A DNA stretch of 64,000 bases from Escherichia coli (GTDB lineage: Bacteria > Pseudomonadota > Gammaproteobacteria > Enterobacterales > Enterobacteriaceae), in NCBI RefSeq assembly GCF_003018255.1, contig NZ_CP027440.1, one strand, 5' to 3'. This document shows, one piece after another, positions 29,330 through 35,760 of this stretch. Position 1 is the first letter of the stretch. Every line of letters starts with the position of its first letter. Both the position numbers and the translations under genes were made by a program. Under the pieces are notes generated by a model. The model was not told where the DNA came from. It saw only the letters and a program-made list of their open reading frames with translations, and did no database searches.

Positions 29330-31799
<2,470 letters not shown>

Positions 31800-31869: not shown

Positions 31870-32925
31870 ATGCGTAAAATCATTCATGTGGATATGGACT
31901 GCTTTTTCGCAGCGGTGGAGATGCGCGATAATCCCGCCCTGCGCGATATCCCTATTGCTATTGGCGGCAGCCGCGAACGACGGGGGGTGATCAGCACCGC
32001 CAATTATCCCGCGCGTAAATTTGGCGTACGTAGCGCTATGCCGACAGGGATGGCGCTCAAATTATGCCCGCATCTCACCTTGCTTCCGGGGCGCTTTGAC
32101 GCCTACAAAGAAGCCTCAAATCATATCCGTGAAATCTTCTCGCGCTACACCTCGCGTATTGAACCGTTGTCACTGGATGAAGCCTATCTCGATGTCACTG
32201 ATAGCGTCCATTGCCACGGTTCTGCGACCCTCATCGCCCAGGAAATCCGCCAGACGATCTTCAACGAGCTGCAACTGACGGCATCTGCGGGCGTGGCACC
32301 AGTAAAGTTTCTCGCCAAAATCGCCTCCGACATGAATAAACCCAACGGTCAGTTTGTGATTACGCCGGCAGAAGTTCCGGCATTTCTGCAAACCTTACCG
32401 CTGGCAAAAATTCCCGGCGTCGGCAAAGTCTCGGCGGCAAAACTGGAAGCGATGGGGCTGCGGACCTGCGGTGATGTGCAAAAGTGTGATCTGGTGATTC
32501 TGCTTAAACGCTTTGGCAAATTTGGCCGCATTTTGTGGGAGCGTAGTCAGGGGATTGACGAGCGCGACGTTAACAGTGAACGGTTGCGAAAATCCGTCGG
32601 CGTGGAACGCACGATGGCGGAAGATATTCATCACTGGTCTGAATGTGAAGCGATTATCGAGCGGCTGTATCCTGAACTTGAACGCCGTCTGGCAAAGGTG
32701 AAACCTGATTTACTGATCGCCCGTCAGGGAGTGAAATTAAAGTTCGACGATTTTCAGCAAACTACTCAGGAGCACGTCTGGCCACGGCTGAATAAAGCTG
32801 ATCTAATCGCCACTGCGCGTAAAACCTGGGATGAACGCCGCGGCGGGCGCGGTGTGCGACTGGTGGGGCTGCATGTGACGTTACTTGACCCGCAAATGGA
32901 AAGACAACTGGTGTTGGGATTATGA
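31870..32925 (+). CDS. dinB: DNA polymerase IV (Y-family translesion polymerase)
   Basis: 351 aa, [22 protein letters not shown]... canonical DinB N-terminus. Confidence 0.95.
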
Positions 32926-33374
32926 ATAACATACAAATAAGAGACTATCAGCCTGGCGATTTTCAGCAACTATGCGCTATTTTCCTTAGAGCGGTTACGA
33001 TGACCGCCAGTCAGCATTATTCACCACAACAAATTGCCGCCTGGGCGCAGAATGACGAATCTCGCTGGAAGGAGAAACTCGCGAAATCACAAGTGCGGGT
33101 TGCAGTCATTAATGCAAAACTGGTCGGCTTTATTACCTGCGTTGAACACTATATCGATATGTTATTTGTTGACCCTGAATACACCCGCCGCGGGGTTGCC
33201 AGCGCCTTGTTAAAACCTTTGATTAAGTCTGAATCCGAACTTACGGTGGACGCCAGCATAACCGCAAAACCCTTTTTTGAACGTTATGGTTTTCAGACAG
33301 TTAAGCAGCAGCACGTTGAATGCAGGGGAGCGTGGTTTACTAATTTTTCTATGCGATATAAACCGCAACATTAA
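32922..33374 (+). CDS. yafP: GNAT-family acetyltransferase
   Basis: 150 aa; start overlaps the dinB stop (ATGA). Confidence 0.8.
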
Positions 33375-33691
33375 ATCCAGCTTGCAATGAAAATAACACC
33401 CGCCTGGTATGTGCGCGTTTTCTTATTCCACAAACTGCAAGGAGGTAAATCATGACAAATCCTTTATCAATGACTCTTTGCAGACCTTTCCAGGATTAAT
33501 TCTTTTTTTCTTGCCCTGGATTCGTCTGCCATTTCCTGATTTTTATATTTATATACTCTAAATAATTCGAGTTGCAGGAAGGCGACAAGCGAGTGAATCC
33601 CCAGGAGCTTACTAAAGTAAGTGACTGGGGTGAACGAACGCGGTCGCAGTACATGCAACTTGAAGTATGACGAGTATAAATGGAATGATAC

Positions 33692-33946
33692 ATGGGCAAA
33701 TATATTCGTCCCTTATCCGATGCGGTATTTACCATCGCATCTGATGACCTGTGGATCGAGAGTTTAGCGATCCAACAATTACACACCACGGCAAATTTAC
33801 CCAACATGCAGCGCGTTGTGGGGATGCCAGATTTACATCCCGGACGCGGCTACCCGATTGGCGCAGCGTTCTTCTCTGTTGGTCGTTTTTACCCGGCAAG
33901 ACGTCGCGGTAACGGTGCTGGAAACAGAAACGGGCCGCTACTCTGA
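33692..33946 (+). pseudogene. ykfJ: RtcB-like RNA ligase fragment
   Basis: Short ORF with the RtcB motif [14 protein letters not shown], far shorter than an intact RtcB; neighbouring frames carry further fragments. Confidence 0.55.
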
Positions 33947-33988
33947 CACGCTGCGTTCGGCGCTGATTTCTCTGGATGGCGATAATGC

Positions 33989-34246
33989 ATGGGCATTAAG
34001 CGAAAGTTGGTGCGGCACTATTCAGTGTATTTGTCCGAGTCCGTATCGGCCTCATCATGGGCGCAAAAACTGGTTTCTGGGCATGCTAACAAGCGGCTGG
34101 CGCGATTGCTGATTGCCTGGAAGCTGGAACAACAGCAACAGGAAAATAGCGCGGCGCTGAAATCGCAGCGGCGAATGTTCCATCACCAGATTGAACGTGG
34201 CAACCCGCGACGAACGTTCACAGGGATGGCTTTTATCGAAGGATAA
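33989..34246 (+). pseudogene. prfH: peptide chain release factor homolog fragment
   Basis: 85-aa fragment in the position of the K-12 prfH pseudogene next to ykfJ. Confidence 0.45.
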
Positions 34247-34302
34247 TGAAGGATGAAACTGCCGGAAGGCGATTAAACGCCATCCGGCAGCAAATCAAAT
34301 AA

Positions 34303-35760
34303 TTACTTCGCCGGAATTTCTTTCAGCAGTTCAGTCAGTAGTGTCCAGTAATGACCTACGCTTTCGATGTGAACTTGCTCATCCGGAGAGTGTGGACCGG
34401 TGATGGTTGGCCCGATAGAAACCATGTCCATTTCCGGATACGGTTTTTTGAACAGACCACATTCCAGGCCCGCGTGGATAATCTGGATGTTCGGCGTCTT
34501 GTTGAACAGGCGCTGATAGGTTTCACGTACCAGATGCATCACCGGAGAATTAGCGTCCGGCTGCCAGCCAGGATATGCGCCTTTCGCTTCGGTTTTCGCG
34601 CCAGCCAGTTTACCCAGCGAATCCAGCATGCTCACCACGTAGTCTTTACCGCTGTCGATCAGAGAACGGATCAGGCAGTGAATTTCTACGTTATTGTCAG
34701 TCATGGTCACCACACCGACGTTCAGGGAGGTTTCGACCACACCTTTTGCCACGTCGGAGTTGCGGATCACACCGTTCGGGGTGGCGTTCAGCAGACGAAT
34801 AAAGGTATCGCGAGATTTCGCAATCAGGGCAGCTTTATCGTTCGCAACAGAGTCCAGCAACAAGGCCAGATTTTTCTCTTTCTCTGCCAGCTCGTTTTTC
34901 AGGATCTCCTGATAGGTATTCACCAGAGATTTCAAAGCGTCGACTTTATCAGCTGCGACAGCAATGGTCGCAAAGGCTTCACGCGGGATGGCGTTACGCA
35001 GTGTGCCGCCGTTGAAATCGATAAGGCGCAGGTCCAGTTCTTCTGCATGACCCGCCAGGAAGCGCACCAGCAGTTTGTTGGCATTACCCAGGCCAACGTG
35101 GATTTCACCGCCGGAGTGACCGCCTTTCAGGCCTTTTAAGGTTAACTTGAAGGTTTCAAAGCCAGCTGGAACCGCTTCACGATCTAAATGCAGGTTGGAG
35201 GTGAAGTCGATACCTCCCGCACAACCCATGTAGATTTCACCTTCTTCTTCGGAGTCGGTGTTAATCAGAATATCAGCCTGCAACCAGTTGCTCTGTAAGC
35301 CAAAAGCACCGTCCATACCGGCTTCTTCGGTCATGGTCAGCAGCACTTCCAGCGGGCCGTGAACCACGTTTTCGTCAGCCAGAACCGCCAGTGCAGAGGC
35401 CATACCAATGCCGTTATCCGCACCCAGCGTGGTGCCGCGTGCTTTAACCCATTCGCCATCAATATAAGGCTGGATAGGATCTTTGGTGAAGTCATGCACG
35501 GTGTCGTTATTTTTTTGCGGCACCATATCGAGGTGGGCCTGCAAGACGACCGGTTTACGATTTTCCATACCTGCGGTAGCAGGTTTACGAATCAGGATAT
35601 TACCTACCTGATCGCGTTCGACATGGAAACCTTTCTCTTTTGCCCAACCAACAATGTATTCAGCGAGTTGCTCTTCATGATAGGACGGGTGAGGAATAGA
35701 ACAGATTTTGGCAAAAATATCCCACAGCGGCTGTGGAGATAATTGAGACAGTTCAGACAC
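34303..35760 (-). CDS. pepD: cytosol nonspecific dipeptidase (aminoacyl-histidine dipeptidase)
   Basis: 485 aa M20-family peptidase. Confidence 0.9.
   Translation of the reverse strand: MSELSQLSPQPLWDIFAKICSIPHPSYHEEQLAEYIVGWAKEKGFHVERDQVGNILIRKPATAGMENRKPVVLQAHLDMVPQKNNDTVHDFTKDPIQPYIDGEWVKARGTTLGADNGIGMASALAVLADENVVHGPLEVLLTMTEEAGMDGAFGLQSNWLQADILINTDSEEEGEIYMGCAGGIDFTSNLHLDREAVPAGFETFKLTLKGLKGGHSGGEIHVGLGNANKLLVRFLAGHAEELDLRLIDFNGGTLRNAIPREAFATIAVAADKVDALKSLVNTYQEILKNELAEKEKNLALLLDSVANDKAALIAKSRDTFIRLLNATPNGVIRNSDVAKGVVETSLNVGVVTMTDNNVEIHCLIRSLIDSGKDYVVSMLDSLGKLAGAKTEAKGAYPGWQPDANSPVMHLVRETYQRLFNKTPNIQIIHAGLECGLFKKPYPEMDMVSIGPTITGPHSPDEQVHIESVGHYWTLLTELLKEIPAK

Follow-up and report, generated by a model that had tools for sequence, protein, structure and literature searches.

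RtcB2 and PrfH form a two-gene module that acts on ribosomes cut in the decoding centre. When colicin E3 or CdiA-CT(ECL) has cleaved the 16S rRNA between A1493 and G1494, PrfH recognises the damaged 70S ribosome and releases the nascent peptide via its GGQ domain; the 16S rRNA of the 30S subunit is then specifically re-ligated by RtcB2 (PMC9304027). Where the module is intact, PrfH enters the A site of the cut ribosome to release the peptide, and RtcB2 seals the rRNA once the 30S subunit has been freed. Rescue and repair of such ribosomes have been demonstrated in vitro and in vivo (PMC9304027, PMC9223846). The intact operon protects strain ATCC25922 against colicin E3. The K-12 derivative BW25113 has a truncated operon, which gives no protection and whose knock-outs behave as wild type (PMC9223846). 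The truncation was described by Baranov et al. in 2006 as a deletion of about 1000 nt in K-12 MG1655, W3110 and O157:H7 relative to the intact loci of CFT073, 042 and UTI89, and the K-12 genes were termed pseudogenes (PMC1586002).

The two proteins belong to the same superfamilies as canonical RtcB (RtcB1, of the rtcBA operon) and as RF1, RF2 and ArfB, respectively. Intact RtcB2 matches the Pfam RtcB profile, and intact PrfH matches RF-1 and, below cut-off, the prfA, prfB and ArfB models. Each nevertheless has an equivalog family of its own, TIGR03073 for RtcB2 and TIGR03072 for PrfH, and among such families it is only these two that the fragments described here match, in both cases partially.

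We examined this locus in a stretch of 64,000 nucleotides from Escherichia coli (contig NZ_CP027440.1), referred to below as the window. The rtcB2-prfH rescue-and-repair operon of the window is very probably a non-functional relic that was destroyed in two steps, and nothing in the analysis contradicts this explanation. Fragment identities, deletion junctions, allele frequencies and the nesting of the second deletion within the first were determined directly, while the biochemical function of the module and the non-functionality of the first deletion allele are taken from the literature.

The yafP-pepD interval and its intact counterparts

The gene order in the window is lfhA' (an flhA-like pseudogene), lafU, dinB (31870-32925), yafP (32922-33374), the relic region, pepD (34303-35760, minus strand), gpt and frsA, so that yafP and pepD are the flanking genes, as had been read from the sequence alone. 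The spacer between them covers 33375-34300 (926 bases), with the relic proper at 33692-34249. The whole spacer is 100% identical to that of E. coli JNE23-011 (NZ_AP045067), which was assembled independently. Since 26 SNPs separate the two strains across 6.9 kb, the window comes from a close relative but another isolate. The RefSeq annotation of the identical JNE23-011 sequence is two pseudogenes.

The same slot between yafP and pepD holds an intact module in strains JJ2434 and AR436, with an rtcB2 gene of 1,140 bp (379 aa) whose end overlaps by 4 bases the start of a prfH gene of 615 bp (204 aa). The JJ2434 proteins score 642 bits against NF007153, 618.6 bits against TIGR03073 and 328.9 bits against TIGR03072, all above the curated cut-offs, and the 204-aa PrfH of the cryo-EM structure PDB 7SA4 matches JJ2434 PrfH (E 8.7e-137). 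The locus in the window is therefore orthologous to that of the intact RtcB2-PrfH module (ATCC25922, CFT073 and JJ2434; PMC9304027, PDB 7SA4; PMC9223846), and its fragments are 95-100% identical in DNA to the intact alleles. In contrast to these, the window lacks 82% of rtcB2 and about 43% of prfH, its reading frames are disrupted and none of the catalytic motifs remains.

The sequence-only reading had proposed a pseudogene relic of a pair thought to form a ribosome or RNA repair system in other bacteria. The relic is borne out by the intact pair found in the same slot elsewhere, by the 1,018 and 169 bp that are missing from the window and by the RefSeq pseudogenes of JNE23-011. The proposed role was right, although it was put as a supposition when it has already been demonstrated in vitro and in vivo (PMC9304027, PMC9223846); an intact system does exist, although not just in other bacteria, as about half of E. 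coli genomes carry it at this very locus.

Several features of the neighbourhood were observed alongside. The dinB stop and the yafP start overlap (ATGA) at 32922-32925, as they do in JJ2434 and AR436, and the window has no yafN-yafO toxin-antitoxin pair, which K-12, PCN033 and others carry between dinB and yafP. About 2 kb from the rtcB2-prfH relic lies a second deletion relic, the scar of the Flag-2 (lateral flagella) cluster at 29330-31799. Here lfhA, the flhA-like pseudogene, lies on the minus strand directly next to a shortened lafU; in the near-identical strain lfhA is annotated without its N-terminus. The lafU gene is 786 bp in the window against 924 bp in JJ2434, where motA lies upstream.

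Three gene fragments and two deletions

The rtcB2 remnant comprises codons 1-69 of 379 (ykfJ in K-12 nomenclature) and lies at 33692-33898 on the plus strand, where it was located by tblastn and profile matches. It opens an ORF of 84 codons (33692-33946, plus strand; MGKYIRPLSD...), which contains the 14-residue peptide that had earlier been singled out as RtcB-like. The 69 RtcB2 residues are followed by an out-of-frame tail of 15 residues and a stop codon (33899-33946), in which prfH DNA is translated in the rtcB2 frame. In tblastn, the 69 residues agree at every position with the start of the intact JJ2434 protein of 379 aa (100% identity, E 2e-47). They match NCBIfam NF007153 at positions 1-69 of 379 (E 6.6e-31) and TIGR03073 release_rtcB (E 5.4e-29), and the Pfam RtcB match is limited to profile positions 1-35 of 426. 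The scores of 107.6 bits (NF007153) and 101.3 bits (TIGR03073) are below the curated cut-offs of 407 and 271.8 bits, and the remnant represents part of a family member, no longer a functional one. In intact RtcB2, PF01139 positions 115-425 correspond to residues 100-372, and the alignment with solved RtcB structures begins at about residue 102. The remnant in the window ends at residue 69, and the catalytic core, with the metal-binding and GMP-histidine region, is absent from it.

Pairwise alignment with intact alleles shows that 1,018 bp have been lost at the end of the rtcB2 remnant (deletion 1), fusing rtcB2 to prfH out of frame. The junction (33890-33898, plus strand) consists of the one remaining copy of a 9-bp repeat, TACCCGGCA, at which the blastn pieces overlap by 9 bases. 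The left copy in intact rtcB2 is TACCCGGCA (codons 67-69), and the right copy in JJ2434 prfH is TACCCGACA (codons ~30-32); in the parental allele the right copy was presumably TACCCGGCA as well. Deletion 1 takes rtcB2 codons 70-379, the stop/start overlap of the two genes and prfH codons 1 to ~31. The two remnants are thus adjacent in their ancestral order, with the overlap itself deleted. A K-12-type deletion allele, as described in PMC1586002, is recognised by a loss of about 1 kb at the TACCCGGCA junction that takes the 3' portion of rtcB2 together with the 5' portion of prfH; the window has this loss, and its junction is identical to that of K-12 DH10B.

What follows the junction had been read as one release-factor-like piece. 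Matches to TIGR03072 uphold its identity, but there are two pieces, and hence three fragments overall. NCBIfam TIGR03072 was needed to identify them. Remnant a (33894-34083, plus strand) encodes residues ~32-94, part of the decoding-centre-binding domain, and matches TIGR03072 release_prfH at positions 32-94 of 200 (E 9.3e-25, 87.3 bits). Remnant b (34085-34249, plus strand) encodes residues 152-204 and the stop codon, its coding part (34085-34246) matching positions 151-200 of 200 (E 4.3e-15, 55.8 bits). Each is below the curated cut-off of 166.65 bits. PF00472, the RF-1 peptidyl-tRNA hydrolase domain, was not found in the window fragments in a Pfam search, while it is present in the intact and K-12 proteins; the prfH fragments have no Pfam match because RF-1, the sole Pfam domain of PrfH, lies inside the deleted part. 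The frames had been said to differ, which translation supports for remnant a, but remnant b shares the frame of the rtcB2 remnant.

Between remnants a and b, 169 bp are missing relative to both K-12 and the intact alleles (deletion 2), which causes a frameshift. Comparison with K-12 and JJ2434 places the junction at 34081-34084 (plus strand), at a 4-bp microhomology, GCAT. PrfH residues 95-151 are lost, including the GGQ motif at 120-122, and together the two deletions remove 1,187 bp (1,018 + 169 bp) relative to intact alleles. Mapping the region against intact alleles, as had been proposed from the sequence, thus located two separate deletions, which that reading had missed, as it had the loss of the GGQ region and the upstream ERIC repeat described below.

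The relation to K-12 follows from these comparisons. The K-12 ykfJ-prfH pseudogene pair (PMC1586002) shares with the window the locus, the 1,018-bp deletion, the 9-bp junction, the 69-codon stump and the ERIC insertion, with 97.7% identity over the shared DNA. Of the two, only the window has the additional 169-bp frameshifting deletion, which takes the GGQ motif and the RF-1 domain that K-12 still encodes. K-12 also has the yafN-yafO pair, which the window lacks.

Because the catalytic parts of both proteins are gone, neither ligase nor hydrolase activity can be encoded in the window. The cleaved A1493 3'-phosphate is recognised by a pocket formed by R83, H85, H86, R88 and R189 together with the N-terminal segment (PMC9304027). 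Fragment a still codes for R83, H85, H86 and R88, and fragment b for R189. Residues 1-31, which contribute the pocket's other wall, have been lost, and no single chain can be translated from the two fragments.

A reading in which the frame changes are bypassed by programmed ribosomal frameshifting, yielding a release-factor-like protein, would have a precedent by analogy in the +1 frameshift of the paralogous prfB (RF2), mentioned in PMC1586002. Such recoding would have nothing to restore, as PrfH residues 1-31 with the prfH start codon and residues 95-151 with the GGQ domain are all absent, and the junctions coincide with deletion microhomologies and not with slippery sites. Alignment to intact alleles, in which sequence is deleted and not merely shifted, refutes it, and we regard its probability as negligible.

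We favour instead a two-step loss of the operon. In the first step, a deletion of 1,018 bp between the 9-bp direct repeats would have joined the stumps of the two genes out of frame, giving the allele of K-12 and O157:H7. In the second step, within a sub-lineage, a deletion of 169 bp at the GCAT microhomology would have removed GGQ and shifted the frame. Both deletions may have arisen by slipped-strand or illegitimate recombination, and this order of events, deletion 1 before deletion 2, appears the likely one.

Recombination has also shaped the allele in the window, which is mosaic and has a few private SNPs. Among the deletion-1 alleles compared, its 3' end is mosaic, and substitutions at 33817, 33986 and 34028 (the last changing Trp76 to Cys) were not seen in the other sampled deletion-1 loci. 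Private substitutions and a mosaic 3' end are expected of an unconstrained, recombining relic. When relic alleles were aligned with intact ones in MAFFT, the 5' rtcB2 fragment was placed wrongly over the 1-kb gap, leaving the intact columns at 33698-33890 unusable; sequence comparisons were made among deletion-1 alleles themselves and, with intact alleles, by pairwise blastn.

The upstream spacer and flanking hairpins

Alignment to JJ2434 identifies 33375-33691 (plus strand) as the spacer that originally separated yafP from rtcB2. It contains the 5' untranslated region of the former operon and, presumably, its promoter. Positions 33375-33546 and 33676-33898 align to the JJ2434 spacer and rtcB2 start, with about 129 extra bases between them. 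The ERIC element is an imperfect palindrome of about 127 bp with a conserved core for the ERIC1R and ERIC2 primers, present in multiple intergenic copies per genome. The insertion relative to JJ2434 (33547-33675, plus strand) is such an ERIC/IRU repeat, as identified by its primer cores, hairpin and multiple copies. When the primer sequences, reportedly those of Versalovic from 1991, were compared with the region, ERIC2 was found with one mismatch at 33615-33636 and ERIC1R with two mismatches at 33593-33614 on the minus strand, the chance expectation being 0 in each case. The repeat folds into a hairpin of −59.1 kcal/mol (z = −9.1), and the 926-base query that includes it matches a median of 6 places per E. 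coli genome. Searches of Rfam gave a sub-threshold match to V_AS5 (Vibrio AS5) at 33551-33674 and a chance-level snoRNA match, and thus no curated RNA family is found at the relic.

The length of this spacer is polymorphic: it measures 189 bp and has no ERIC repeat in JJ2434, about 245 bp at the AR436 and PCN033-type loci, and 317 bp in the window and K-12. The ~245-bp spacers perhaps contain a shorter form of the repeat. A simple consensus scan of the relic region found no sigma-70-like promoter, and a weak terminator-like site that such a scan gave at 33949-33962 was no better than in shuffled sequences and was discarded.

A G+C-rich stem-loop lies at 34259-34291, between the convergent stops of prfH and pepD. 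As minus-strand RNA it folds with −28.1 kcal/mol (z = −6.5) into the stem CUGCCGGAUGGCG...CGCCUUCCGGCAG, of 13 bp with one internal mismatch, followed by UUUCAU. It is probably the terminator of pepD (and formerly of prfH), and was missed by the simple terminator scan because its T-run is short.

Distribution of the alleles and consequences of the loss

The frequencies of the alleles were obtained from 5,426 complete E. coli genomes. The rtcB2 interior, which is lost in deletion 1, is present in 2,715 of these (~50%), and the relic arrangement of the deletion-1 type, counted where at least 80% of the query matched in one place, in 2,647-2,668 (~49%). Deletion 2 was counted by a junction-specific 44-mer, whose arms are so short that a match can be seeded only across the junction, and was found in 658 genomes (12%). 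Deletion 1 alone is thus carried by about 37% of genomes and both deletions by about 12%, and null alleles of the locus make up around half of the sequenced E. coli genomes.

These numbers bear on whether the genes might really be intact and the relic a product of sequencing or assembly error. The missing 1,187 bp are beyond an error of a few bases. About 2,650 complete genomes share the deletion-1 arrangement and 658 share the deletion-2 junction, and they come from many laboratories and platforms; JNE23-011, an independent assembly, agrees with the window at 100% of the 926 bp. Given how much DNA is missing and how often both junctions recur among independent genomes, an artefact is excluded for practical purposes, and we give it only the slightest chance. 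A continuous full-length ORF after sequence correction had been named beforehand as what would speak against a relic; with more than 1 kb missing and junctions recurring in hundreds to thousands of genomes, the relic stands.

Each of the four deletion-2 loci that were inspected by annotation has deletion 1 as well; they vary in spacer length and in whether yafNO is present. An even sample of 60 rows from 5,423 records contained 8 loci with both deletions, 21 with deletion 1 only and 29 of the intact type, and none in which intact rtcB2 was combined with deletion 2. Together with the inspected loci, this resolves the nesting of the two deletions to about 90 genomes per sampled row, and rare alleles with intact rtcB2 and deletion 2 could exist. 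The distribution supports a stepwise decay, with deletion 1 followed by deletion 2 in a subset of strains.

The locus has also been eroded independently elsewhere. Strain 32F4 (2501-3035 of the locus examined) combines deletion 1 with a different prfH deletion of about 173 bp. In GMF054 (2971-3396 of the locus examined), one deletion of about 1.5 kb reaches from just after yafP into prfH and takes the spacer, all of rtcB2 and about 73 prfH codons. At least four different deletion events have therefore been seen: deletion 1, deletion 2, the ~173-bp deletion of 32F4 and the ~1.5-kb deletion of GMF054.

Two further observations came from the same comparisons. As both deletions are found with and without yafNO, the presence or absence of this pair is independent of the state of the rtcB2-prfH allele. 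The rtcB2 interior also matched six plasmid-borne places, and some genomes had two places, so that the module may occasionally be mobile or exist in two copies.

The remnant could in principle have kept or gained a function, either through the 84-aa ORF as a small protein or through its transcript as a regulatory RNA with the ERIC hairpin. The ATG is kept, the first 69 residues are unchanged from the intact protein, a very stable ERIC hairpin lies just upstream and about half of E. coli genomes retain the remnant. However, the conserved RtcB core from about residue 102 onward is gone, the Pfam RtcB match being confined to the profile's first 35 of 426 positions, and the BW25113 knock-outs of the truncated genes were indistinguishable from wild type in colicin E3 assays (PMC9223846). 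Mentions of ykfJ in the available literature are incidental, amounting to one or two full-text occurrences, with none in a title or abstract, and the simple scan found no consensus promoter. Other strains are eroded further or differently, and the lack of the entire rtcB2 stump in GMF054 argues against constraint. A residual or new function is thus highly improbable, and a non-functional relic remains the preferred explanation.

By extrapolation from K-12 derivatives, the strain is predicted to be without RtcB2-PrfH protection against colicin E3 and CdiA-type cleavage of 16S rRNA by this route. Why the loss is so widespread admits a selective explanation: where colicin E3 or CdiA pressure is absent, loss might be favoured, for example if PrfH or RtcB2 harmed undamaged ribosomes, and the polymorphism would then be held by balancing selection in toxin warfare, as opposed to arising by neutral decay. 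We consider this rather unlikely.

The finding itself is already known, from Baranov 2006 (PMC1586002), Tian 2022 (PMC9304027), Maviza 2022 (PMC9223846) and the RefSeq pseudogenes, the main deletion having been published since 2006. The nested deletion 2 is the sole added detail and a minor one, already flagged by PGAP as 'frameshifted'; it is not described in the available text of PMC1586002, PMC9304027 and PMC9223846, figures such as Baranov Figure 2A apart. The relic matters little beyond annotation: the strain would resemble K-12 in its predicted lack of tolerance to ribotoxins of the decoding centre (colicin E3, E. cloacae CdiA-CT). The census illustrates how a pseudogene erodes step by step and how a defence-like function can be polymorphic for presence and absence.
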